The notes below the pieces were generated by a model. That model did no database searches, was not told where the DNA came from, and saw only the letters and a program-made list of their open reading frames with translations. Positions 3,857-34,498 of a stretch of 40,693 bases of DNA are shown here, piece by piece (the stretch's first letter is position 1; each line of letters begins with the position of its first letter). The position numbers and the translations under genes are program-made. Source of the DNA: a virus. Taxonomy: Duplodnaviria > Caudoviricetes. The stretch lies in IMG/VR virus record IMGVR_UViG_3300017909_002489, positions 1-40,693 of that record; one strand, written 5' to 3'.

Positions 3857-3861
3857 GGAAG

Positions 3862-3940
3862 TGGAGGCGGTGGGACTCGAACCCACGTTCCTTACGCTGC
3901 CCTCGTGGGGATTCTTGTAAGGTCTTTCCTATTCGCCCCC
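3862..3940 (-). ncRNA. tmRNA tRNA-like-domain-only RNA (mini-tmRNA / tRNA-Ala mimic), 79 nt
   Basis: Acceptor GGGGGCG/CGCCTCC with G3:U70 and discriminator A. Stemless D loop AATAGGAAAGA, helix CCTTAC/GTAAGG, AAC linker, T arm GTGGG-TTCGAGT-CCCAC. No anticodon arm, no tag ORF, CCA not encoded. Confidence 0.8.
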
Positions 3941-18632: not shown

Positions 18633-19111
18633 CCTAGAATGCGGAAACTAGGGGCATCTCAGCCTGGAGCTGGGTTGGTCAAGGTTGGTCAAGGGCTCTA
18701 TCTAACCTAGAAATTTTTGGGGTCTACGTGATACCCCCGAGCGCGCGCGCAAGCAAGCCTCGGGTCGGTCGCGCGCTCGCGCTCGCCCGCGATCGCGGGC
18801 GGGGGAGGGTAGGCGGACTCTGCTCGGCATCCACCCACCCCCACCCCCGAGCCCGTGCCCCCGTCGATCGACGCTCCCGCCGTCCATAGTCCGCGGCTCA
18901 TCACGGCCGCGGCCGGACTAAGTGCGGAAGGACTAGCCCCGAGCCCCAGCCCGCAGCCCAGCCCCGTCCACCGTCGATCCAGGGCTGGAGATCCGCAGCC
19001 CCAGCGCGAGGCCCCGACCGATCGACGGCCGAGGCGACCGCCCCCAGGAAATTCGGACAAACCTGGACCCAGCTCACTTTCGAGACATACCGTGGCAAAG
19101 GGTTCGAGTGC

Positions 19112-19127
19112 GTAACGATTTGATAAC
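19112..19127 (+). promoter_or_regulatory. MtrA/GlnR-like direct-repeat box upstream of the early operon
   Basis: GTAAC-N6-ATAAC matches the GTnAC-N6-GTnAC class of actinobacterial OmpR-family sites. Confidence 0.35.
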
Positions 19128-19197
19128 GTCCGGCGTTTGCCATGGTCCGCCCCCACGCCTCGGCATATGCTGGCCAGACCTGCCCCACCTGGGGCCA

Positions 19198-19207
19198 AAC
19201 ATTGGAG
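19198..19207 (+). repeat. AACATTGGAG start-associated box 1
   Basis: Exact 10-mer 6 nt before ATG 19214; preceded by small hairpin 19182-19195. Confidence 0.9.
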
Positions 19208-19213
19208 ACAGAT

Positions 19214-19540
19214 ATGCCGAACATCATCGACCGCGCCGACCTGCGCACGGTCACCACCTGGGACATCCGCCGCGAGAACTCCGCCGCGGGCTTCCACTTC
19301 TTCGATCAAGCCGCAATGCGTTGGTTCTCGTCGCGCGTGCTCCCGACCATCCACACAGACGGGGCTCGGCTTTTGTTCGTCACGAGCGAGCGCGACACCT
19401 GGAACGACCAGCCCCGCCTCTACACAGTTCGGGAGTTCGATCTCACCACGGCCGAGATCATTACCCACGGATTCCAGAAATTCACCACGGCCGCCGACGC
19501 CCACGCAGAAGCGCGCAACATCCTGGGGGTGACCGCATGA
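19214..19540 (+). CDS. Early hypothetical protein (108 aa)
   Basis: ATG after box 1; MPNIIDRADL...GFHFFDQAAMRWFSSRV. Confidence 0.85.
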   Translation: MPNIIDRADLRTVTTWDIRRENSAAGFHFFDQAAMRWFSSRVLPTIHTDGARLLFVTSERDTWNDQPRLYTVREFDLTTAEIITHGFQKFTTAADAHAEARNILGVTA

Positions 19541-19773
19541 ACGCCCCAGGAACCGCGCGGAACCTAACCGCCGCCCCCGTCGATGAGCCGACCCACGTCC
19601 GGACGGATTGCTGCGACCTAGTGACCTGGCCGCTGCACACTTTCCTCGCCCGTGACGGTGTTGGCGACGTCGTGCGGATCTGCCGCACGGGGCACGGTTG
19701 CCTCTCCGACGTCCTGAGCCGCCCCTACTACCAGGGGACCTACCGCGTGGACCCGCCAGGGGTGACCCGATGA
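19537..19773 (+). CDS. Early hypothetical protein (78 aa, Cys-containing)
   Basis: ATGA overlap, GGGGTGA RBS. Confidence 0.7.
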   Translation: MNAPGTARNLTAAPVDEPTHVRTDCCDLVTWPLHTFLARDGVGDVVRICRTGHGCLSDVLSRPYYQGTYRVDPPGVTR

Positions 19774-20003
19774 CCGCGCCAGACCGTCGCACGTGGACGG
19801 ACTGCGCAGCGTGCGAGTGCCGCCCCCGCGCGGTCTGTGACTGCTCCTGCCACCCGATCCCGACCGCGTGCCTGTGGTGCTACGAGCCTGCCGAGGTCGC
19901 CACCTGGACGCCCGTCAATGGATGGATCGACCTATGCACGCGACACCACGCCCAGACCGCGCGGGAAGTAGTGGCAAACATCATCGAAAAAGCCACGCGA
20001 TGA
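19770..20003 (+). CDS. Early Cys-rich putative Zn-binding protein (77 aa)
   Basis: ATGA overlap; CAACEC...CDCSCH...CLWC...CTRH. Confidence 0.7.
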   Translation: MTAPDRRTWTDCAACECRPRAVCDCSCHPIPTACLWCYEPAEVATWTPVNGWIDLCTRHHAQTAREVVANIIEKATR

Positions 20004-20092
20004 CCGCCGCATACCTGGCATTCATGGCCGCGCTGTTCGCCGTCGGATTCATGGAACAGACGCTCATGGTGCGCGACGAGATCCGCCGCTGA
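20000..20092 (+). CDS. Small membrane peptide (30 aa)
   Basis: ATGA overlap; MTAAYLAFMAALFAVGFMEQTLMVRDEIRR. Confidence 0.6.
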   Translation: MTAAYLAFMAALFAVGFMEQTLMVRDEIRR

Positions 20093-20093
20093 C

Positions 20094-20137
20094 CGCTTGC
20101 CTACGCCGCCCAGCGCGCTGGACGGCTAGGGGAGGCG
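20094..20137 (+). other. Long imperfect intergenic hairpin (candidate RNase III processing site)
   Basis: CGCTT-GCCTA-C-GCCG-C-CCAGC-GC-GCTGG-A-CGGC-TAGG-GG-AGGCG between a stop codon and box 2; no U-tract. Confidence 0.55.
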
Positions 20138-20154
20138 ACCCAGCCCCCGAACCG

Positions 20155-20164
20155 AACATTGGAG
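20155..20164 (+). repeat. AACATTGGAG start-associated box 2
   Basis: Exact 10-mer 5 nt before ATG 20170. Confidence 0.9.
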
Positions 20165-20169
20165 ACAGC

Positions 20170-20571
20170 ATGACCAACGTAAGTGCAGACACCTGCCGCA
20201 AGGTAACCGCCGAGATCCGCGCAGCCGTGGAACCGATCCTGGAAGCCCACGGGCTCACCATGGACAAGACGAGCGCGAAGTACGGCGACCTATACGCCCT
20301 CACGATCAAAGCCCACGGAAAAAGCGTGAACGCGGACGGGATCGACGAGGGCGACCCGCAGGTTCAGGACTGGTTCACGATGGCCCGAATCCATGGAGTG
20401 CCAGACCCCGCGGAGTGGATGACCACACCCCGCAAAATCCGCGGCCGCGATTACGTCGTAGTGGGCTGGGCGTACCGGAGCCGAAAGTACCCGCTGCTCA
20501 TGCGCGACCTGTCCGACGGCAAGGTCTACAAGTTCCAGGAAAGCGTGCTGGAGCAATTCCTCAACGTCTAG
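20170..20571 (+). CDS. Early hypothetical protein (133 aa)
   Basis: ATG after box 2; C-terminal GWAYRSRKYPLLMRDLSDGKVYKF. Confidence 0.85.
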   Translation: MTNVSADTCRKVTAEIRAAVEPILEAHGLTMDKTSAKYGDLYALTIKAHGKSVNADGIDEGDPQVQDWFTMARIHGVPDPAEWMTTPRKIRGRDYVVVGWAYRSRKYPLLMRDLSDGKVYKFQESVLEQFLNV

Positions 20572-20633
20572 GCGAAACCGCCCCACGGGGCGGTCTAGCG
20601 GCTTGACGACCCGCTACTGACGAGCCGAGTCAA
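20571..20633 (+). ncRNA. Type II hammerhead ribozyme 1 (predicted cleavage after C20595)
   Basis: GGC-GAAA-CCGCCCC-AC-GGGGCGG-TC-TAGCGG-CTTGACGAC-CCGCTA-CTGACGA-GCC. Full catalytic core, stems I-III, GUC site, and a loop I TTGAC / 3' GTCAA pseudoknot. Confidence 0.93.
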
Positions 20634-20643
20634 AACATTGGAG
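20634..20643 (+). repeat. AACATTGGAG start-associated box 3
   Basis: Exact 10-mer abutting ribozyme 1, 5 nt before ATG 20649. Confidence 0.9.
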
Positions 20644-20648
20644 AACGC

Positions 20649-20948
20649 ATGATGACCACGTTCAGCGTTTCCTGGCATGAAACCAGGGAAGAACGCAAAG
20701 AACCTGACGCGATGGCCCCGATTGAGTTCCGCGGGTTATCCGTCGAGATCCACAGCGGAGACGCGATTGACGACATAGAGATCGTCTGGGCACCCCTGGA
20801 GCACTCCAGGCAATACCTAGATCCTGGCGACCTGTACGAGATCCAAGAGGTCGTCGCTCAAGCGATCGCCCACTACGAGGAACGCGCCGCCGCTTCCAAA
20901 GCTGCGATCGCCGAGTGGCGCGCAAGCCGCGAGGAGGCCCAATCATGA
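20649..20948 (+). CDS. Early hypothetical acidic protein (99 aa)
   Basis: ATG after box 3. Confidence 0.8.
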   Translation: MMTTFSVSWHETREERKEPDAMAPIEFRGLSVEIHSGDAIDDIEIVWAPLEHSRQYLDPGDLYEIQEVVAQAIAHYEERAAASKAAIAEWRASREEAQS

Positions 20949-21124
20949 GCAAGCCAATCACGATGACTGTGTACCTGTACGCGGACGAGGGCGAGAACCC
21001 TCGGAAGTGGAACGTCGCCGAATGGCTGGATGACCCGACGGTAGTCGGCTGGGACATCGAAACAGGACACCCCGAAGGCTGCTCTGGCTGCGCCACCAAC
21101 GATCGACAGGAGGCCCGAGCATGA
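20945..21124 (+). CDS. Early hypothetical protein (59 aa)
   Basis: ATGA overlap, GAGGAGG RBS; MSKPITMTVYLY...HPEGCSGC. Confidence 0.7.
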   Translation: MSKPITMTVYLYADEGENPRKWNVAEWLDDPTVVGWDIETGHPEGCSGCATNDRQEARA

Positions 21125-21711
21125 GCGAGAGCAAGAAAAGAATCGACGCTGCCCTAGACAAGATTGCCGAGGCGATGGGCGACCTAACCGAAGCAGTACG
21201 GACAGCCGACGACCACGATTGGGCAAACAATTACCTGTCGGCCATGTTCGACGTCGCTGGGTTCACCCAATCGACCGAAGAAGCCCAGCACGCGCTCATG
21301 CTCACAGAGCAAGATCGACGGGAAACCTGGAACAACAATCGGCCGCCCATAGATCTGAACGCCGTGGGTTACGTCGTCCGACAGATCACGGGCTACGACG
21401 TCAAGTTGGAGCAGACCGGAGGCGGAACCGCCACCATGTACGTCTACGCCGACGGAATCGACAACGCCCTCGCGGTCGCTGGGCCTGGATGGTTCACGAC
21501 CCCATCGTGGACAAAAGCACTCGCGGATTGGGACGGGTTCTGCATTGGCTTGGACGACGATGGCGAGGACTTCTGGTGGTATCCGCAGCAGGAGTTCCCC
21601 TGCCCGACCGACCAGGAGATTGCCCAGATCATCGCCGACTACGCCGGAGCCACCCACGAGAACATCCGCACGGATTGGAGGAACGTAGACGTCAAGCCCT
21701 CCTGGGCCTAG
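21121..21711 (+). CDS. Early hypothetical protein (196 aa)
   Basis: ATGA overlap, AGGAGG RBS; EQTGGGTATMY motif. Confidence 0.8.
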   Translation: MSESKKRIDAALDKIAEAMGDLTEAVRTADDHDWANNYLSAMFDVAGFTQSTEEAQHALMLTEQDRRETWNNNRPPIDLNAVGYVVRQITGYDVKLEQTGGGTATMYVYADGIDNALAVAGPGWFTTPSWTKALADWDGFCIGLDDDGEDFWWYPQQEFPCPTDQEIAQIIADYAGATHENIRTDWRNVDVKPSWA

Positions 21712-21769
21712 CGAAACGCCCGAGAGGGCGTCGCGCGGAGTGCCGACCCGCGCCTGATGAGCAGAGGCA
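21711..21769 (+). ncRNA. Type II hammerhead ribozyme 2 (predicted cleavage after C21732)
   Basis: GC-GAAA-CGCCC-GAGA-GGGCG-TC-GCGCGG-AGTGCCGAC-CCGCGC-CTGATGA-GC. Full core, GNRA-capped stem III, 2-bp stem II, and a loop I TGCC / 3' GGCA pseudoknot. Confidence 0.92.
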
Positions 21770-21771
21770 GA

Positions 21772-21781
21772 AACATTGGAG
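21772..21781 (+). repeat. AACATTGGAG start-associated box 4
   Basis: Exact 10-mer just after ribozyme 2, 5 nt before ATG 21787. Confidence 0.9.
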
Positions 21782-21786
21782 AAACC

Positions 21787-22272
21787 ATGTTGCACCACAA
21801 GTACGAGGTGACGATCCGATTCACCACGGATCGACCCCTCACAGAGCACGAGCGAAACTGTCTGGAGTCCTACACCTGCGCCCAAGTGGACGACCCAGCG
21901 ATCCACAACAACGCCGGAGAGATCCAGGACGCCGAGTTCCGCACCTGGGTTCAGAGCGTCGATCTCGCATGGACGGGCTTTATCCGCCGCCCCGTAACTT
22001 CCGTCGAGGACAATGTTGATCCGCAGAACTTCTCTGCTGACATACATGTTTGCGAGGAATCCGAGTGGCGATTCCTGGACTGTGACAAGTGCGAAGAATG
22101 CGAGATCCGGATCTGCGTCGATTGCGGAGCCGAGGTCGGGGCCGAACCGACCCCAACCTGCGACGTCTGCGCCCAGCCCTGCGACGAGCAGCAGCGCGAA
22201 TGGTGCGGAACCTGCGGGAACTGCGCCGACCATTGTGCAGCCGAGATGGACTGCGCGGGGGTGACGGCATGA
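21787..22272 (+). CDS. Early protein with Cys-rich C-terminus (161 aa)
   Basis: ATG after box 4; multiple CxxC pairs. Confidence 0.8.
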   Translation: MLHHKYEVTIRFTTDRPLTEHERNCLESYTCAQVDDPAIHNNAGEIQDAEFRTWVQSVDLAWTGFIRRPVTSVEDNVDPQNFSADIHVCEESEWRFLDCDKCEECEIRICVDCGAEVGAEPTPTCDVCAQPCDEQQREWCGTCGNCADHCAAEMDCAGVTA

Positions 22273-22469
22273 GCGCGTACCCCGACGGCTTCTACAACGT
22301 GACGATCGTTCACGACCTGTTCACGATCACGACGATGGTCATGGCCGACGATGACGAGGACGCGACCAAAACCGCCAAGCAGTTCCTCACCCAGGATCAA
22401 GGCTTGCCCGATTGGGTAGCCGAGAACGCCATAAGCGTCCAGGTCGAGTTGGAAGGGGTGTTCCGATGA
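22269..22469 (+). CDS. Early hypothetical protein (66 aa)
   Basis: ATGA overlap, GGGGTGA RBS; MSAYPDGFYNV... Confidence 0.75.
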   Translation: MSAYPDGFYNVTIVHDLFTITTMVMADDDEDATKTAKQFLTQDQGLPDWVAENAISVQVELEGVFR

Positions 22470-22780
22470 GCGAGGTACAAGTGCAAAGGCAGGCGACGGT
22501 CGAAGCGGTCCATCGCGCGCTCGGCGAATCACAACGCCGCCGCGTAAAGCAAGTGCAACTGTTGGAAAACCAGATTGACGATCTCATAGGAACGTTGCAC
22601 AGGCTCAAGCATGATCTCGCCGCCGAAGATCCCATGGAGAGATGGGGGAGAGGCGGTCATTGGGAACGGAATGGCGAGTTGCAAGGGTACGGCGGAAAAC
22701 TCGATATGCGCCTTGCCGTGCTCGCAGGTATCGACCATGAGATCCGCGCCCTGAATGAAATACGGGAGGTCTGGCGATGA
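22466..22780 (+). CDS. Early hypothetical coiled-coil protein (104 aa)
   Basis: ATGA overlap; MSEVQVQRQ... Confidence 0.7.
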   Translation: MSEVQVQRQATVEAVHRALGESQRRRVKQVQLLENQIDDLIGTLHRLKHDLAAEDPMERWGRGGHWERNGELQGYGGKLDMRLAVLAGIDHEIRALNEIREVWR

Positions 22781-23145
22781 AAAACCCATCCTGGCTCACG
22801 CCCGAAGGATTCCTGGCGATCTGCGCCGTGAACACGACCGAGGTCACCGGAGAGCGAGAACGCCTCGCCGACTACACCAAAACCGTGACCGAAGTGCCCA
22901 AGGGGACGGGCTGGCCGAAACTCTCCAGGGATCTCCAGGAGTGCTGGGAGCACCTAATACGGGAGTGCTGGTCGATTGACGCGATGATGACTAACGCCGA
23001 AACCCTGTACCCGCGGGAACGGCTCACGCCGGAATCCTGGGTGCAGGTGAGAGGGGAGGTTTATCGCATGACGCTCACCTATGACCGGCTCGCACGCGAC
23101 ACGCGAGCCCAGCTCGCCCACGCCCGAGCTGAGATCAGCGGGTAA
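22777..23145 (+). CDS. Early hypothetical protein (122 aa)
   Basis: ATGA overlap, GGGAGG RBS. Confidence 0.75.
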   Translation: MKNPSWLTPEGFLAICAVNTTEVTGERERLADYTKTVTEVPKGTGWPKLSRDLQECWEHLIRECWSIDAMMTNAETLYPRERLTPESWVQVRGEVYRMTLTYDRLARDTRAQLAHARAEISG

Positions 23146-23166
23146 GATTGCCACCATCCGCCGGAT

Positions 23167-23221
23167 CTCCTGGTGGTGGCCTCCGGCCAGGTTCCACAGC
23201 CTGTCCGGAGGCTGCCAGGAG
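23167..23221 (+). other. Long imperfect intergenic hairpin (candidate RNase III processing site)
   Basis: CTCCTGGT-GGT-GGCCTCCGG-C-CAGG-TTCCACAG-CCTG-T-CCGGAGGCT-GCCAGGAG, upstream of box 5. Confidence 0.55.
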
Positions 23222-23239
23222 GAGAGCCCTCCGAGAGCA

Positions 23240-23249
23240 AACATTGGAG
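23240..23249 (+). repeat. AACATTGGAG start-associated box 5
   Basis: Exact 10-mer 5 nt before ATG 23255. Confidence 0.9.
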
Positions 23250-23254
23250 CACCA

Positions 23255-23659
23255 ATGGGAATGGACATCTACGCCCACGATCCGATCAACCCCGAGAATG
23301 ATTATTGGCGGTCGAGCATTGGGCATTGGTCAAAACTAGGCGGCTACGTCTACGACGTTGCTGGAGCCACGATCGACACGATCACCCCAGGCAAAGATAA
23401 TTGGTTCAGCAACGCTGGCGACTTCATAGACGAGGAAGCCTGCACGCGCATAGCCGCCGAGGTCCGCTGGCACATACAAGAAAACGGCCTACCCGAGACA
23501 CCCAAGGTCAGCAACAACCCGACGTCCGACCTGATGGGCGTCATCGAAAGATCCCTCGGAGCCAACATCATCGACTGCACACCACGCAATCTGGTGGCCG
23601 AGCAGATCATCGAGTTCTGCGAGTTCCTAGAAAACAGCCGCGGAATCCGCATTCTCTAG
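23255..23659 (+). CDS. Early hypothetical protein (134 aa)
   Basis: ATG after box 5; MGMDIY...EFCEFLENSRGIRIL. Confidence 0.85.
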   Translation: MGMDIYAHDPINPENDYWRSSIGHWSKLGGYVYDVAGATIDTITPGKDNWFSNAGDFIDEEACTRIAAEVRWHIQENGLPETPKVSNNPTSDLMGVIERSLGANIIDCTPRNLVAEQIIEFCEFLENSRGIRIL

Positions 23660-23692
23660 CCCAATTTGCCATCATCTCCCGAAAGGAAAACC

Positions 23693-23845
23693 ATGGCCCT
23701 TTACCTGGCCCTCACGATCGGCACGATCATCGTCGCCGGACTGTTCATTCACCACGACGCTTACGAGCGCGGCCGCGAGCACGGCCGCAACCTGGAACGC
23801 GCGCAAACTCGACACCCAGCAAGCAACGTCCGAGTAAGCCGATGA
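23693..23845 (+). CDS. Small membrane protein (50 aa)
   Basis: AAAGGAAA RBS; MALYLALTIGTIIVAGLFIHHDAYERGREHG...; below the ORF-track cutoff. Confidence 0.7.
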   Translation: MALYLALTIGTIIVAGLFIHHDAYERGREHGRNLERAQTRHPASNVRVSR

Positions 23846-23976
23846 CGTTCCAAGCGATCTCCGCTTACTGCAAAAAGCGTGTCGGGCAGCAGCCCGAACA
23901 CGATCGCTGCTACGGCAGGGGATGGGAGTGGTTGGAATGCTCCTGCCCCTGCCACGAGCCAGAAAACGCAACGTGA
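23842..23976 (+). CDS. Small Cys/His-rich protein (44 aa)
   Basis: ATGA overlap; C...HDRC...CSCPCH. Confidence 0.65.
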   Translation: MTFQAISAYCKKRVGQQPEHDRCYGRGWEWLECSCPCHEPENAT

Positions 23977-24368
23977 ACTACGAGCGCGAGAAACTAAACG
24001 ATCTGGTCTGGATCAAAACCAAGTACGGCGGCCCGTACAGCCACGGCATGTTGTATCGCAACTATCAGTTCGAGGGATACCCCGACGGACGCGCCGCCTA
24101 CGAGGTTGGAGACACGAGCGTCAAGTTGGATGGCACACCCAATCTTGTGCTGGCCGAAGGCCAGGTGAAATACAACGCTTGCGAACTGTTCGCGAACGTC
24201 TGGGCCAAGTCCACCGAACTCCTCAGAGTCGAGGAGCGAAACCACGACGCCTACGTCCGACTCCAAGTGTGGCTCGCACCAGGCGACGACGTACACACCG
24301 CCGAGGCTCTAGAACATCTCGCCGGACAGATCCGAGCCAACGCCGCAGCAAAGGAGCAGCACCCATGA
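23973..24368 (+). CDS. Hypothetical protein (131 aa)
   Basis: GTGA overlap with the previous gene. Confidence 0.65.
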   Translation: MNYEREKLNDLVWIKTKYGGPYSHGMLYRNYQFEGYPDGRAAYEVGDTSVKLDGTPNLVLAEGQVKYNACELFANVWAKSTELLRVEERNHDAYVRLQVWLAPGDDVHTAEALEHLAGQIRANAAAKEQHP

Positions 24369-24688
24369 GATTCCCGTTCCGCAAGAACGAACGCGCGGCC
24401 CTGGAAACAGCCCTGGAGTTGCCGCACAAGACTGTCAGCGAGGCAGCGAAAGCAGCCTGGGACGCGAGCTTGGAGCAGTTTCTCGCACGCGAGATGTGGG
24501 TTGTGCTGGTCCGAGATCCAGGGGTAGGGCTGTTCGCATACGGCGTTTACCCCACGCCAAACGCTGCAAATACAGCAATCAAAAAGGGGGAAATCTTTAG
24601 TGCTAGTTCCGGCGCAGTAGGAGTCGTGACGCGCCTCAACAGCCATGAAATAGAGCAATACCACCACGAGCAGGAGGAACTATTTTGA
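24365..24688 (+). CDS. Hypothetical protein (107 aa)
   Basis: ATGA overlap, AAGGAG RBS; MRFPFRKNERAALE... Confidence 0.75.
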   Translation: MRFPFRKNERAALETALELPHKTVSEAAKAAWDASLEQFLAREMWVVLVRDPGVGLFAYGVYPTPNAANTAIKKGEIFSASSGAVGVVTRLNSHEIEQYHHEQEELF

Positions 24689-25194
24689 TCGCCTCATTTG
24701 CCACGTTATCCCTGGCCGCCGCCCTGAGTGCGGCCCCTTTACAGGCTGGCGGCCCCGACCATCACACGCTGCAAACCCAGGAAGTAAACATGGAGAAACC
24801 CCATAAGGGCGCATGGGGTGACCAGATCGTAGAAGCCGCTCGCGTGCCGAAAAAGTGGCGAGCATTTGCGGCTTGCGTTTGCGACCGCGAAAGCGGTGGG
24901 ACTCTGGAAAAGATCCAGTCAGGAGTCGGGGCTCGTAACCCCAGCTCGTCTGCGTCCGGTCGTTGGCAGTTCCTCAATTCGTCGTGGAACGAGCCGTTGG
25001 GTTACATCGTTGCCGACCGGCTCAAAAGCAAAGGCGTACCCAAGTCCGTAGCCAAAGAAATCCGCGTCGAGTTACAGGCCATGCCGATCTACGAGTGGCA
25101 CGGGTATTTCCAGGACGTCGGTTTCGTCGCTGTCGTAACCAACGGTGGATGGAGACATTGGAACGGCCACACCTGCAACGGGCGGAGGCCGTAA
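24685..25194 (+). CDS. Secreted lysozyme-like lytic transglycosylase (Rpf/SceD-like, 169 aa)
   Basis: Signal peptide (MIASFATLSLAAALSAAPLQA); catalytic RESGG; ARNPSSSASGRWQFLNSSW; GGWRHW. Confidence 0.75.
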   Translation: MIASFATLSLAAALSAAPLQAGGPDHHTLQTQEVNMEKPHKGAWGDQIVEAARVPKKWRAFAACVCDRESGGTLEKIQSGVGARNPSSSASGRWQFLNSSWNEPLGYIVADRLKSKGVPKSVAKEIRVELQAMPIYEWHGYFQDVGFVAVVTNGGWRHWNGHTCNGRRP

Positions 25195-25511
25195 TGGGTG
25201 GGCAGCAGCGGTATCCGCTGCGTCAAGACAGGAATCGCGCCCTAATGGATCTGCCTCTGACCTACCAAAACTGTCAATGGATGGACCAAGGCGCGTGCAT
25301 TGGGGAAGATCCAAAGTATTGGATGTCCACTTCCGAGGACGAGAAAACACAAGAGATTCGCGAGAACGTCCAGGTCGCAGTCCAGATCTGTCGCAAGTGC
25401 CCCGTCCAATCCGAGTGCCTGTCGCACGCCATGACGTACCTGGAATTGGGGATCTGGGGCGGGACGACAGATATTGAGCGTTCGCTTATGCGGAAGCACC
25501 GAATGGCATGA
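25194..25511 (+). CDS. whiB: WhiB-family Fe-S transcription factor
   Basis: W..QGAC...ICRKCPVQSECL...GIWGGTT...ER: four Cys plus the G(I/V)WGG turn. TAATG coupling; an alternative start is at 25245. Confidence 0.93.
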   Translation: MGGQQRYPLRQDRNRALMDLPLTYQNCQWMDQGACIGEDPKYWMSTSEDEKTQEIRENVQVAVQICRKCPVQSECLSHAMTYLELGIWGGTTDIERSLMRKHRMA

Positions 25512-25633
25512 GTGCGTACCTGTGTCCCGAGTGCAAAGATGACAACAACACAGTCTTGCAGTCGGACTACGGCCCCCACCTAGTCATCAAGTGCGATTCG
25601 TGCGTGCTTGTTTACGGTGCTGCCAAGCCGTAG
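25508..25633 (+). CDS. Zinc-ribbon microprotein (41 aa)
   Basis: ATGA overlap; CPEC...CDSC. Confidence 0.7.
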   Translation: MSAYLCPECKDDNNTVLQSDYGPHLVIKCDSCVLVYGAAKP

Positions 25634-25641
25634 AATAGACC

Positions 25642-25686
25642 GGAAAGGCCCCTGGGTTTCACTCCAATGTACCTGGGGGCCTTTCC
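25642..25686 (+). terminator. Hairpin at the convergence of the two arms; loop is antisense to the AACATTGGAG box
   Basis: GGAAAGGCCCC-TGGGT-[TTCACTCCAATGT]-ACCTG-GGGGCCTTTCC. G:U pairs form only on the + strand. Confidence 0.8.
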
Positions 25687-26385
25687 CTATGCGCCTTCCT
25701 CTGTGCGTCGAGTATCCACTTGAGCAGCAGCGTTACTTCGCCGCTGTCGCATACGCCTCGGTTGCTCACCACCGATAGATCGAATCAGCCTGTTGATCGC
25801 TCGGGACAATCGGTATCGCATAGTCCGATCCTTGACTTTGGCCGAGGCAGCCATGACTTTGACGTCGCTGCCCCCGAACGCGAACCGATCCCACAGGAGC
25901 CTCTTGTCGTTTGGTGGGAGTGAGGCCAAGCCGGCACGGATATCGGAAAGCATGGCGTGGTACTCGAATCCTTCGGATGGCTGCTTTGACGCGCGGACGA
26001 ACTCACCGTGGGGGGCCGCGCTTACCGTGGTTGTGCCGGCGTCCGGATCAAAGGCGTCCGGAAGTAGCTGCTCCACCACGCTGCGCGAGTAGTGGTAGTA
26101 GTCGTCGGGTTTCGTCCCGTCGCGCCGCATCCGCTCTTTCTGGCACATCTTGTGTAGATGGACTCGGAGAGAAGATGAAAGTAACCCTTTGGCATTCTTC
26201 TGAGAGGCTGTCTCATCATCGTCAAGCCAGCCATGGACTTTCCTGGAGTGAGCGAACACCCATATCCACGCCTCTTGACGGAGATCATCCTCTGGGATGT
26301 ATTCCCTTTGAGACTTTGCGACTTGCTTCGCCGTTTGAGTAACGGCCTTGGCGACGAGCGTGTTGAGAAACAACTCGTCATTCAC
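25687..26385 (-). CDS. Sigma-70/ECF-like transcription factor (232 aa)
   Basis: Region-2-like EDDLRQEAWIW and region-4-like LASLPPNDKRLLWDRF...TMRYRLSRAINRL. Confidence 0.7.
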   Translation of the reverse strand: MNDELFLNTLVAKAVTQTAKQVAKSQREYIPEDDLRQEAWIWVFAHSRKVHGWLDDDETASQKNAKGLLSSSLRVHLHKMCQKERMRRDGTKPDDYYHYSRSVVEQLLPDAFDPDAGTTTVSAAPHGEFVRASKQPSEGFEYHAMLSDIRAGLASLPPNDKRLLWDRFAFGGSDVKVMAASAKVKDRTMRYRLSRAINRLIRSIGGEQPRRMRQRRSNAAAQVDTRRTEEGA

Positions 26386-27131: not shown

Positions 27132-27528
27132 TTTCCTTCGGTAGTGACTTGGCGAGTCGGCCTATGAGAAGGGAAATCATGGCGATGTAGTTCTGTGCGT
27201 CCGCGAGTTCTTCCTGTAACCCTTGGATAAGTTCTTGAAGTTTCATCTCCTCGAACTTTTGATGAGTGCCACGGTCGTACTGCACCATGCCATCACCCTC
27301 AACCCGCTGGGCGCACCAGCGAGCAAAGTCTCTGACGTATTGCGCCAGCTCGTAACTTGTTATCCCGTAGTCTGGCGAACCTGGGGGACGCGCAACAGAA
27401 CCGTCCCGTCCGCTTGGTTCGCTGAGACAATTTGCATCCCCGTGGCTTTCAGCATTTCCAGCACTCTTGTCCATTCGTAATCTGTCAAGGCTGGGCCAGT
27501 CATAGCGGGGGATTCCTCCGTAGGTCAT
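27073..27528 (-). CDS. Hypothetical protein with MazG-like helical motif (151 aa)
   Basis: QKFEEM...QEELADAQNY; ATGA overlap with primase. Confidence 0.5.
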   Translation of the reverse strand: MTYGGIPRYDWPSLDRLRMDKSAGNAESHGDANCLSEPSGRDGSVARPPGSPDYGITSYELAQYVRDFARWCAQRVEGDGMVQYDRGTHQKFEEMKLQELIQGLQEELADAQNYIAMISLLIGRLAKSLPKESDERETGMGNTGSPDPVSR

Positions 27529-28151
27529 AGTGCTCTCAATATCTCTCGTAGTTGTTCAGCTCCGTGTTTGACATAGATGGAGTTCGTGTCCTCGCCAGAG
27601 GGAAGTTCGACCATGGTCGCGTCAATTTCTTCGACCATCTTCTTCCCGAAATCTCGTCCAGCCTCGTCCCCATCAGCCAGGACGATGATCCGGTCAAAGT
27701 CCTCAAAGAGCCATCGCCACGACTTGTTCCAAGCCTTCGACCCTGGTACACCCACGGCGGTCACGCCCATTTGTGTAAGGGTCATCTGATCTAGTTCCCC
27801 CTCGACGACGACTGCTTCTCGGCTGTCACCGAGCAAGCAACTAACCCCGAATAGGTGAGGCATGGCCCCGCTACGCGACAGATACTTAGGCGTGGAGTCG
27901 TCCAGGGTGCGAAACCGCAACGCAACGACCTCGCCGGAGGCACATATGTAGGGGATTGCGAGTCGTCCGACGTATCGCTCATCGCCCAGACTCGCTGTAT
28001 CTGAGGCTACGACGCCAAGACGGAACATATTGACGGTCCCCTCGGTTAGCCCTCTGCTCACTAGGTAAGGCAGAGCGACCTCGATGTTCTCTTGATACGC
28101 CGCCGTTGCCTTCTCCAGCGATTCCTTTTGCGATTCTGAGAGCCTGTCCAA
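27525..28151 (-). CDS. DNA primase, TOPRIM domain (208 aa)
   Basis: GRLAIPY, KYL, VVEGELD, DGDEAG and DTN motifs of DnaG/T7-type primases. Confidence 0.9.
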   Translation of the reverse strand: MDRLSESQKESLEKATAAYQENIEVALPYLVSRGLTEGTVNMFRLGVVASDTASLGDERYVGRLAIPYICASGEVVALRFRTLDDSTPKYLSRSGAMPHLFGVSCLLGDSREAVVVEGELDQMTLTQMGVTAVGVPGSKAWNKSWRWLFEDFDRIIVLADGDEAGRDFGKKMVEEIDATMVELPSGEDTNSIYVKHGAEQLREILRAL

Positions 28152-28365
28152 AGTCGCATCCTTCCTTTATCTGTATGACTTTCAAGGCGTCGCCCTTGAA
28201 TCCGCACGCATGGCAGTTCACGGCGTTCTTGTCGAAATTGACGGAGGCACTTGCTTGCCTGTCGTCATGTTCCACGCACTTGACGGGAACCCATCCAGGT
28301 CGCTCGCTCGGCAGAGTCCAGCCGTAGTGCTCCAGCACGGGACCGATAGAAAAGTCGTAACTCAC
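27979..28365 (-). CDS. DNA primase zinc-binding (CHC2) domain protein (128 aa)
   Basis: CVEHDD.QASAS...CHACGFKGD. GTG 28365 overlaps the resolvase stop; overlaps the TOPRIM ORF by 173 nt. Confidence 0.85.
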   Translation of the reverse strand: MSYDFSIGPVLEHYGWTLPSERPGWVPVKCVEHDDRQASASVNFDKNAVNCHACGFKGDALKVIQIKEGCDFGQALRIAKGIAGEGNGGVSREHRGRSALPSEQRANRGDRQYVPSWRRSLRYSESGR

Positions 28366-28727
28366 GAGATACCACCCCACCGGAGCAGGTTGATGAACTC
28401 GTCCACGGTCATCACGATGCGACCCTCGCCAGGGCCAGACTGACGAGTCTTGGTGGCGACGAACGCGATCGTGGGCTTGTCGTACTTCTCGCTGTAATTG
28501 TCGGCCTCTGTGAACGCTTGCCGCAGAAAATCTTTCATCTTGTCCCATGCGGAGCGCACGTTCTTGCACTCGCCAATGGCGTCAAAGAACTTTGTGCGGA
28601 TGGAGATGTCCCCGATGTCTTTACTGCCAGCCCGCGGTAGCCGGCGGGCGTCGAGTCCCATCTCGTTGAGGTAGTTCTCTAGGTCGCGCTCCCATGCGCT
28701 GCCCTTCCGCTTGTTCGCGCTACTCAT
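28362..28727 (-). CDS. Holliday junction resolvase-like PD-(D/E)XK nuclease (121 aa)
   Basis: NKRKGSAWERDL...DIGDI...ECKN, an archaeal-type/phage resolvase pattern. Confidence 0.8.
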   Translation of the reverse strand: MSSANKRKGSAWERDLENYLNEMGLDARRLPRAGSKDIGDISIRTKFFDAIGECKNVRSAWDKMKDFLRQAFTEADNYSEKYDKPTIAFVATKTRQSGPGEGRIVMTVDEFINLLRWGGIS

Positions 28728-33490: not shown

Positions 33491-34498
33491 GTGAAGGTGG
33501 CGAACGAAACTTTAAGTCAGGCGTACCTGAAATACGAGCAAAACCTGTTGGCCCAAGGGTGGGCGGAGAACACTCGAAAGAATAAGTTGCAAGTGCTTCA
33601 TCACGCCAAGAGGACCTGGGGTAACCCCGTTGTCCGGCGTATCCAGCCAGCCGACGTCAATAAGTATTTCGGCAATCAGGATTGGAGCGAACGAACCCGC
33701 AATCTGTACCTGACGGGCCTTCGGCAGTTTTTTAAGTTTTGCCGAGAAACCCGAATCACCCCACCAGATCACGACCCGACGATTGGGTGGCGGATGCTAC
33801 GCGAGCCGGACTCCGAGATGTTTTGGATTCCGCCGTCACAGTTCAACGACTTGATGGATGCGACTGAGCACCCACGCGATCGCATGATCATCGCCGTCGG
33901 CCTGTTTGCCCTGTGTCGAGGAAGCGAGGTCCGCGCTTTAACTTTTGGCGACGTTGATCTTGACTCTGGAGTGTTGCATGTGTATCAGATCAAGAACAAG
34001 CGCGAGCTGCGCCTGCCCATTGTGAGCAACCTACGCTCCGAGTTTGAGCGGTACTTTGAGTGGATCACCAGCATTCAAGGCCCGATCCAATCGTGGTGGA
34101 ATCTGACTCCGCCACGAGCCAAGAGGTTTACCTCCGGCTTGACATTTCAACAAGCGGCTTTCCAGCCGCCGGTAGTCATGGAGATGGATAAGCAGTTCGC
34201 TCACATCTACAAGCCAGTCCGCGAGGCTTTTATTGCTCTCGGTTACGACCTTCCTGGTAAGACAGGTAACCACGCCCTCCGTCGATCTGGTGCTCGCAAC
34301 CTTCTAGAACACTTCCGCCGGATAGAAGGGGAGCAGTCCGCCATCCTCCGCGTGTCCACCATGCTCGGTCACAAGTCCGAAAAGGACACTAGGAAATACC
34401 TAGGAATGAACTTGGAGATGGAACAACTACACGACCGCCTTATCGGAGCCGACGTTCTCGGCGATCCGCACGCCCAAGCCCGACTTCGAGTTGTGTAG
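33491..34498 (+). CDS. int: Tyrosine integrase (335 aa; start may be GTG 33497)
   Basis: Catalytic R (LCRGSE), K (IKNK), HALRR, LGH and Y (RKYL); adjacent attP. Confidence 0.92.
   Translation: MKVANETLSQAYLKYEQNLLAQGWAENTRKNKLQVLHHAKRTWGNPVVRRIQPADVNKYFGNQDWSERTRNLYLTGLRQFFKFCRETRITPPDHDPTIGWRMLREPDSEMFWIPPSQFNDLMDATEHPRDRMIIAVGLFALCRGSEVRALTFGDVDLDSGVLHVYQIKNKRELRLPIVSNLRSEFERYFEWITSIQGPIQSWWNLTPPRAKRFTSGLTFQQAAFQPPVVMEMDKQFAHIYKPVREAFIALGYDLPGKTGNHALRRSGARNLLEHFRRIEGEQSAILRVSTMLGHKSEKDTRKYLGMNLEMEQLHDRLIGADVLGDPHAQARLRVV

Follow-up and report, generated by a model that had tools for sequence, protein, structure and literature searches.

A type II hammerhead ribozyme, here termed ribozyme 2, lies between the stop codon of one phage gene and the ribosome-binding site (RBS) of the next, and by every feature testable in sequence it is a member of the Rfam family RF02276. 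The stretch analyzed, henceforth termed the window, is a complete virus record of 40,693 bases with direct terminal repeats. Self-cleavage of ribozyme 2 after C21732 is very likely judging from its sequence, and our favored reading, to which we assign a probability of roughly 0.6, is that hammerheads of this kind split what is likely an early message into pieces that are each protected. Ribozyme 2 is unremarkable as such; its sequence is new and belongs to a lineage of actinophages related to the Beephvirinae (cluster BF).

Structure and family membership of ribozyme 2

The elements of ribozyme 2 and its immediate neighbors are as follows.

21121..21711, + strand: upstream gene (196 aa), whose TAG gives the first base of stem II
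21711..21769, + strand: hammerhead ribozyme 2 (type II), from the RF02276 match, a descriptor search and a check of the pairs
21711-12/21761-62, + strand: stem II, 2 bp (G21711-C21762, C21712-G21761)
21713-15, + strand: GAA (GAAA being 21713-16)
21716-21/21726-31, + strand: stem III, 6 bp including the core A-U pair, GAGA loop
21730-32, + strand: cleavage triplet GUC, predicted cut after C21732
21733-38/21748-53, + strand: stem I, GCGCGG/CCGCGC, 6 bp with a 9-nt loop
21741-44/21766-69, + strand: pseudoknot TGCC/GGCA between loop I and the 3' tail, 4 Watson-Crick bp
21754-60, + strand: core CUGAUGA
21772..21781, + strand: box 4 RBS, AACATTGGAG, with the Shine-Dalgarno (SD) GGAG 5 nt before ATG 21787
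21787..22272, + strand: downstream gene (161 aa)

Against the Rfam covariance model, ribozyme 2 scores 46.6 bits (E 1.4e-6, model positions 1-66), exceeding the gathering score of 37. The core is canonical and without deviation, with CUGANGA, GAAA and the UH triplet all present, and the layout is that of type II, in which loops close stems I and III and stem II is open. G21711, the final base of the TAG that ends the upstream reading frame, opens stem II, and A21769, the last base of the pseudoknot, is separated by 2 nt from the box at 21772. A first-pass annotation had proposed a hammerhead of this topology and cut site, with a stem II of only 2 bp, that begins on the TAG stop and ends 2 nt before box 4; sequence, descriptor and Rfam model bear out this description.

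Among 150 dinucleotide shuffles of the window, 148 contained no descriptor match and two contained one, such that the two matches of the real window were reached in none (0/150). By itself, CTGANGA is no more frequent than expected (18 observed vs 22 expected), and the hammerhead signal therefore resides in the whole structure. Folding with ViennaRNA, which cannot model the pseudoknot, gave stem II a probability of 0-0.29. We additionally observed an ATG at 21757-21759, within the ribozyme core, that is in frame with the downstream gene and has no SD; gene callers may thus misplace the start of that gene.

Covariation among hammerhead copies

Only two RF02276 matches occur in this genome, ribozyme 2 and a second hammerhead, ribozyme 1, located upstream of it.

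20571..20633, + strand: hammerhead ribozyme 1 (type II; 20570-20635 as Rfam match), RF02276 46.8 bits, same layout
20596-601/20611-16, + strand: stem I of ribozyme 1, TAGCGG/CCGCTA
20603-07/20629-33, + strand: pseudoknot of ribozyme 1, TTGAC/GTCAA, 5 bp
20634..20643, + strand: box 3 RBS, before ATG 20649

Ribozyme 1 has a stem II of 3 bp and a predicted cut after C20595, and its pseudoknot abuts the next box with a gap of 0 nt. Owing to a competing fold, its stem I reaches a probability of only 0-0.42 in ViennaRNA without the pseudoknot. Stem III, counting the core A-U pair, spans 8 bp in ribozyme 1 vs 6 bp in ribozyme 2. The differing stem I sequences of the two copies, their pseudoknots (4 bp in ribozyme 2, 5 bp in ribozyme 1) and a 9-nt loop I ending in GAC in both had been noted in the first pass and were all found at the positions given.

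Comparison of the two ribozymes revealed two-sided changes at two of the six stem I pairs and at one of the four shared pseudoknot pairs, i.e., three compensatory swaps among ten comparable pairs. The fifth pseudoknot pair is exclusive to ribozyme 1; in ribozyme 2, G21740 opposes G21770. The covariation between the copies is thus real, as had been claimed, but it is thin, and to call three compensatory pair swaps in two copies strong evidence of selection overstated it. Common descent and separate acquisition are inseparable from two copies, which may be separately acquired modules. Stronger support comes from outside the pair, i.e., from the Rfam score, the shuffles, a copy in a relative and an excess of matching loops and tails over a tail-swap control.

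The copy in the relative, a close one (L243; terminase 87% identical), has the same geometry and scores 41.7 bits in Rfam. Across four copies (the window pair, L243 and L145), all 40 of 40 cells are paired, six pairs show two-sided change, and the covariation score was reached by none of 500 shuffles. The four were selected, out of 20 hammerheads whose stem-loop I measures 21 nt, for having a pseudoknot in this register, which makes the pseudoknot half of the test circular; within it, one of the four pairs changes on both sides and three are invariant. Less biased is the tail-swap control, in which at least 4 Watson-Crick pairs between loop and tail were found in 85 of 149 phage hammerheads vs 55.5 +/- 4.5 with tails swapped (200 rounds, maximum 66).

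A search of 6 of the 64 parts of the viral collection with a narrow type II pattern gave 141 matching stretches, from which we estimate about 1300 viral stretches over the whole. The 149 distinct phage hammerheads of the tail-swap control were recovered from these loci. An SD and start codon lie within 60 nt of the core in 100 of them (shuffled 25.7 +/- 3.8), at a median of 23.5 nt, and a stop triplet lies within 12 nt before GAAA in 118 (shuffled 58.3 +/- 5.7). Placement between stop codon and RBS is accordingly the norm for type II phage hammerheads and not peculiar to this phage. Arrays that we noted were 17 pattern matches about 250-400 bases apart in a 57-kb viral contig (L096) and seven type II hammerheads in a BF-related contig (L018 1824-5676, - strand). 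The latter have a 4-bp stem II, a 3-5-nt loop I and a canonical core and lack the long pseudoknot; a scan at Rfam gathering level misses them as well as the hammerheads of L012 and L019.

Genome and lineage

PHROG matches in the window comprise portal, terminase, major head, primase, helicase, RusA, a sigma-like factor and integrase. Among cultured phages, the terminase matches best, at about 43% identity, those of the Beephvirinae (cluster BF), which infect Streptomyces and make up 29 of the 31 records in a terminase search at E<=1e-60; the host is probably actinobacterial. A run of small genes without assigned functions (19214-25511) is oriented away from the terminase, and cultured BF phages carry the matching cluster, with an ArdA-like gene in it, at the right end of the genome. 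By analogy, the cluster likely consists of early genes. Two Pfam matches suggest that the phage is temperate and infects an actinobacterium.

25245-25511, + strand: WhiB (PF02467)
33491-34498, + strand: tyrosine integrase (PF00589)

The cultured BF phage Manuel has no annotated integrase. It shares with the window a DNA primase split over two overlapping reading frames (28362-28569 and 27525-28151, - strand; genes 55 and 56 in Manuel). Directly before the major head gene, where Manuel carries a tRNA cluster, the window encodes a tmRNA reduced to its tRNA-like domain (3859-3940, - strand; RF00023 40.9 bits, below the gathering score of 47, E 4e-13), with a G-U alanine-type acceptor stem and a 23-nt insert vs the usual about 314 nt. 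ARAGORN does not detect it. A pattern scan found copies of 80-83 nt in eight viral contigs, two of which are near-identical relatives, and the inner helix of these copies shows compensatory changes.

Ribosome-binding boxes in the small-gene cluster

Five exact copies of AACATTGGAG serve as the RBS of five genes in the likely early cluster. Hammerheads precede boxes 3 and 4, long imperfect hairpins precede boxes 2 and 5, and box 1 has neither in front of it.

19198..19207, + strand: box 1 RBS, heading the DUF7447 (Pfam) gene at 19214-19540, the first of the cluster
20088..20144, + strand: long imperfect hairpin, candidate RNase III-type site (20 bp, -30 kcal/mol, z -2.0)
20155, + strand: box 2 RBS, preceded by the hairpin at 20088..20144
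20596..21732, + strand: predicted 1137-nt RNA freed by both hammerhead cuts, deduced from the two cut sites
23160..23238, + strand: long imperfect hairpin, candidate RNase III-type site (about 30-31 bp, z -4.3)
23240, + strand: box 5 RBS, preceded by the hairpin at 23160..23238

The predicted 1137-nt RNA carries the genes 20649-20948, 20945-21124 and 21121-21711. In L243, the DUF7447 gene (ortholog 83% identical) stands behind a hammerhead, whereas box 1 of the window has neither ribozyme nor long hairpin, and RBS and gene start are nearly identical between the two phages. The slot-2 hairpin also has a counterpart in L243, in which CCTAC...TAGGGG is kept and the inner stem is different but paired. 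Neither gene flanking ribozyme 2 gave a Pfam or PHROG match, and no relatives of either were found in viral contigs, which places the slot of ribozyme 2 itself outside the comparison across phages.

The window hairpins gave no Rfam match at E<=5. Inspection by eye, likewise without Rfam support, led us to reject HDV-like, twister or pistol ribozymes as their identity. A search for the pattern CTGANGAGC...AACATTGGAG returned three matches, one real (L003) and two due to chance, and all seven matches to a pattern for the slot-2 hairpin with its box were judged to be chance. A promoter/terminator scan of the window yielded no excess over shuffles (2 vs 1.9; 8 vs 7.6). The scan showed no terminator-like site before 25591 on the + strand, which would fit one long transcript. 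Among sequencing runs, none with RNA was listed for 18900-25700, which speaks neither for nor against transcription.

Hammerheads and hairpins in the slots of related phages

Among 174 loci found through their terminase, eight contain convincing hammerheads, with 19 ribozymes in total, always on the strand opposite to the terminase and 0.9-6.1 kb upstream of it. Of the loci with at least 5 kb upstream, only 3 of 62 carry convincing hammerheads, i.e., most relatives manage without ribozymes. Descriptor matches in L216, L223, L253, L303 and L309 were dropped on account of long weak stems or off-consensus cores.

We then compared 56 RBS slots in 12 phages, comprising the window, six uncultured loci and the cultured BF phages Manuel, WRightOn, Immanuel3, FlowerPower and Dennebes; the slots are a subset, since the box pattern skips variant boxes, and the 12 phages are related to one another, five being cultured BF phages. 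A hammerhead occupies 14 slots, a long hairpin of 20-39 bp with internal loops 32, and neither 10. Under a stricter cut-off for long hairpins (at least 20 bp and at most -29 kcal/mol), 31 of the 42 non-ribozyme slots qualify, as do 35 of 210 shuffles but none of the 14 slots with a ribozyme, an exclusion that is partly trivial because a 60-100-nt gap cannot hold both elements. Ribozymes fill all seven slots of L018 and hairpins six of the seven of L013, while the five cultured BF phages have 18 hairpins in 23 slots and no ribozymes (19-27 slots read). Both elements are mixed in L020, L243 and the window.

In three gene families, the preceding element differs between phages, being a hammerhead in some and a hairpin in others, although homologues across slots are distant. 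In the first, the gene at L018 2349 (ribozyme) is 32-42% identical to those in L013, L016 and L020 (hairpin); in the second, L018 5531 and L020 2742 (ribozyme) share 36-41% identity with L013 6718 (hairpin); the third, which is weak at 21-37%, pairs L012 2318 and L018 4154 (ribozyme) with cultured BF genes (hairpin).

The hairpins in slots 2 and 5, of 20 and 31 bp, fit an RNase III processing site, for which a duplex interrupted by loops or mismatches and roughly two helical turns (22 bp) long is expected. An ideal RNase III substrate measures 22 bp and has degenerate recognition boxes (Nicholson, PMC3867540). With regard to proximal and distal boxes suited to the host enzyme, which are degenerate, the hairpins of BF-type phages show by eye a recurring geometry. 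By shape and position, the long hairpins are candidate sites for the host RNase III, which likely cuts them. Hairpins before AAGGGAGAG boxes (Manuel (L025) 38054-43627, L322-L325, L013 and L020) share by eye an upper stem of 14-16 bp, a lone G-C pair flanked by small internal loops, and a lower stem of 6-8 bp. An Rfam scan of six related loci found only the L243 hammerhead and one sub-threshold microRNA match, and these hairpins possibly represent an undescribed RNA family.

Taken as a whole, the slots suggest, tentatively and at a little short of even odds, that in BF-related actinophages hammerheads and host-RNase III hairpins are interchangeable means of cutting the early message before each strong RBS. 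We found no report in the open-access literature of ribozymes and RNase III-type hairpins sharing phage slots.

Proposed function and alternatives

In the processing-and-protection role that we favor, ribozyme 2 would cut itself while the likely early message is being synthesized, with the pseudoknot, as known for the family, holding stems I and II side by side, offsetting the 2-bp stem II and enabling fast cleavage. On the upstream side of the cut, the RNA would terminate in the stem III hairpin, 21 nt beyond the stop codon; on the downstream side, it would open with the stem I hairpin, bearing a 5'-OH, and a fixed 54-nt leader. Bacterial nucleases are slowed by 5'-OH ends and terminal hairpins; both terminal hairpins here would likely act in this way, and the next gene would be freed from its upstream context. 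Together with the cut in ribozyme 1, the three-gene 1137-nt RNA would be released, and long hairpins in other slots probably have an equivalent role that depends on host RNase III, as known from phage T7. ViennaRNA predicts a stem I pairing probability of 0.91-1.0 in the cleaved downstream product. Clustered prophage hammerheads cleaved polycistronic transcripts of ~2 kb, and pseudoknot disruption and rescue demonstrated that this element is required for fast cleavage (Perreault et al. 2011, PMC3088659). In T7, most transcripts bear RNase III sites, which are needed for optimal protein output, and single-strand cuts by this enzyme leave stabilizing 3' hairpins (PMC3867540).

The uneven distribution of hammerheads can also be explained by an active ribozyme that is a nearly neutral passenger or recombination module, its cutting tolerated and not needed, with gain and loss of ribozyme-and-RBS units that accompany small accessory genes. 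The DUF7447 gene, with a ribozyme in L243 and without one in the window despite its near-identical surroundings, fits this account, as do the patchy occurrence among terminase relatives and the origin of one of the four same-register copies from an unrelated contig (L145). Strict placement from stop to RBS on the coding strand, compensatory changes that keep every cell of the four-copy comparison paired, and the presence in a single phage (L018) of as many as seven copies whose stems differ all argue against it, and we consider it unlikely. Cleavage might instead destabilize the message, opening an entry for nucleases and shutting down early genes after their moment. Early host-takeover genes need only brief expression, and cleavage of the glmS ribozyme leads to decay (PMC6765202), but both products of ribozyme 2 would keep a terminal hairpin, and RiboJ, in which a hammerhead plus hairpin precedes the RBS, permits strong expression in the actinobacterium C. 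glutamicum (PMC8942793), leaving destabilization quite unlikely.

The tight packing of ribozyme and RBS raises the idea of a translational switch, in which the cut unmasks the downstream RBS or a ribosome stopping on the stem II TAG gates the cut. The stop codon indeed overlaps stem II in ribozymes 1 and 2 and in the L243 copy, the pseudoknot ends only 0-2 nt from the box, and in eukaryotic RNA viruses translation benefits from self-cleavage (PMC13725137). The SD lies within no ribozyme stem, however, and the predicted cost of opening the region from SD to AUG, 4.0-5.3 kcal/mol uncut vs 3.8 cut, is barely altered by cleavage, which argues against an RBS switch and makes this account very unlikely. 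That ribozyme 2 is an inactive look-alike, i.e., a chance match or decayed relic, is highly improbable: 4 of the 18 consensus hammerheads tested were inactive (14 were active) and stem II spans just 2 bp, yet this length is common and even 1 bp works (PMC3088659), the core is without deviation, and the score above gathering and the shuffles both set the structure apart from chance.

Significance and comparison with known systems

Within this phage family, related genes are preceded by a ribozyme, by a long hairpin or by neither, a comparison set up by nature, and cultured members grow on harmless Streptomyces hosts, such that the purpose of hammerheads could be tested genetically. Cultured phages with hairpins only, L018 with ribozymes only and the mixed window are the basis for reading the two elements as interchangeable. 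Should this be true, swapping a hairpin for a ribozyme would test why phages carry hammerheads, for instance whether they confer independence from host RNase III.

The RF02276 hammerheads of Perreault et al. (PMC3088659) already displayed the type II layout, the pseudoknot, a stem II of 2 bp and a clustered arrangement between phage genes. They share with ribozyme 2 a stem II that is open, stems I and III that are closed by loops, the canonical core, a pseudoknot of at least 4 bp between loop I and the 3' tail, and multiple copies flanking small gene blocks in phage DNA; the two do not differ in structure, ribozyme 2 being a new sequence with predicted activity. In prophages of Agrobacterium tumefaciens, Azorhizobium caulinodans and Clostridium scindens, two or more hammerheads likewise bracket one to three genes and were proposed to split long transcripts into gene-length mRNAs (PMC3088659); according to a 2019 review, polycistronic processing has been suggested as a role of bacterial and phage hammerheads but needs more work (PMC6765202). 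The genes flanked in these prophages include ardA, and phage Dennebes has an annotated ArdA-like gene in the equivalent cluster. Whereas the prophage hammerheads were shown to cleave, those described here are known from sequence, and the sections of PMC3088659 considered here make no mention of long hairpins in the same slots of relatives.

Early RNase III sites of coliphage T7 are positioned just before RBSs. Like the hammerheads, T7 sites are intergenic cutting signals that leave a hairpin-protected end (PMC3867540), but they need a host enzyme and leave a 5' phosphate, whereas the hammerhead is protein-free and leaves a 5'-OH and a 2',3'-cyclic phosphate; the slot hairpins described here are candidates for RNase III cleavage. 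The synthetic insulator RiboJ (PMC8942793) likewise cuts just before an RBS to give a uniform 5' leader. RiboJ is engineered and placed after a promoter, whereas ribozyme 2 is natural and intercistronic.
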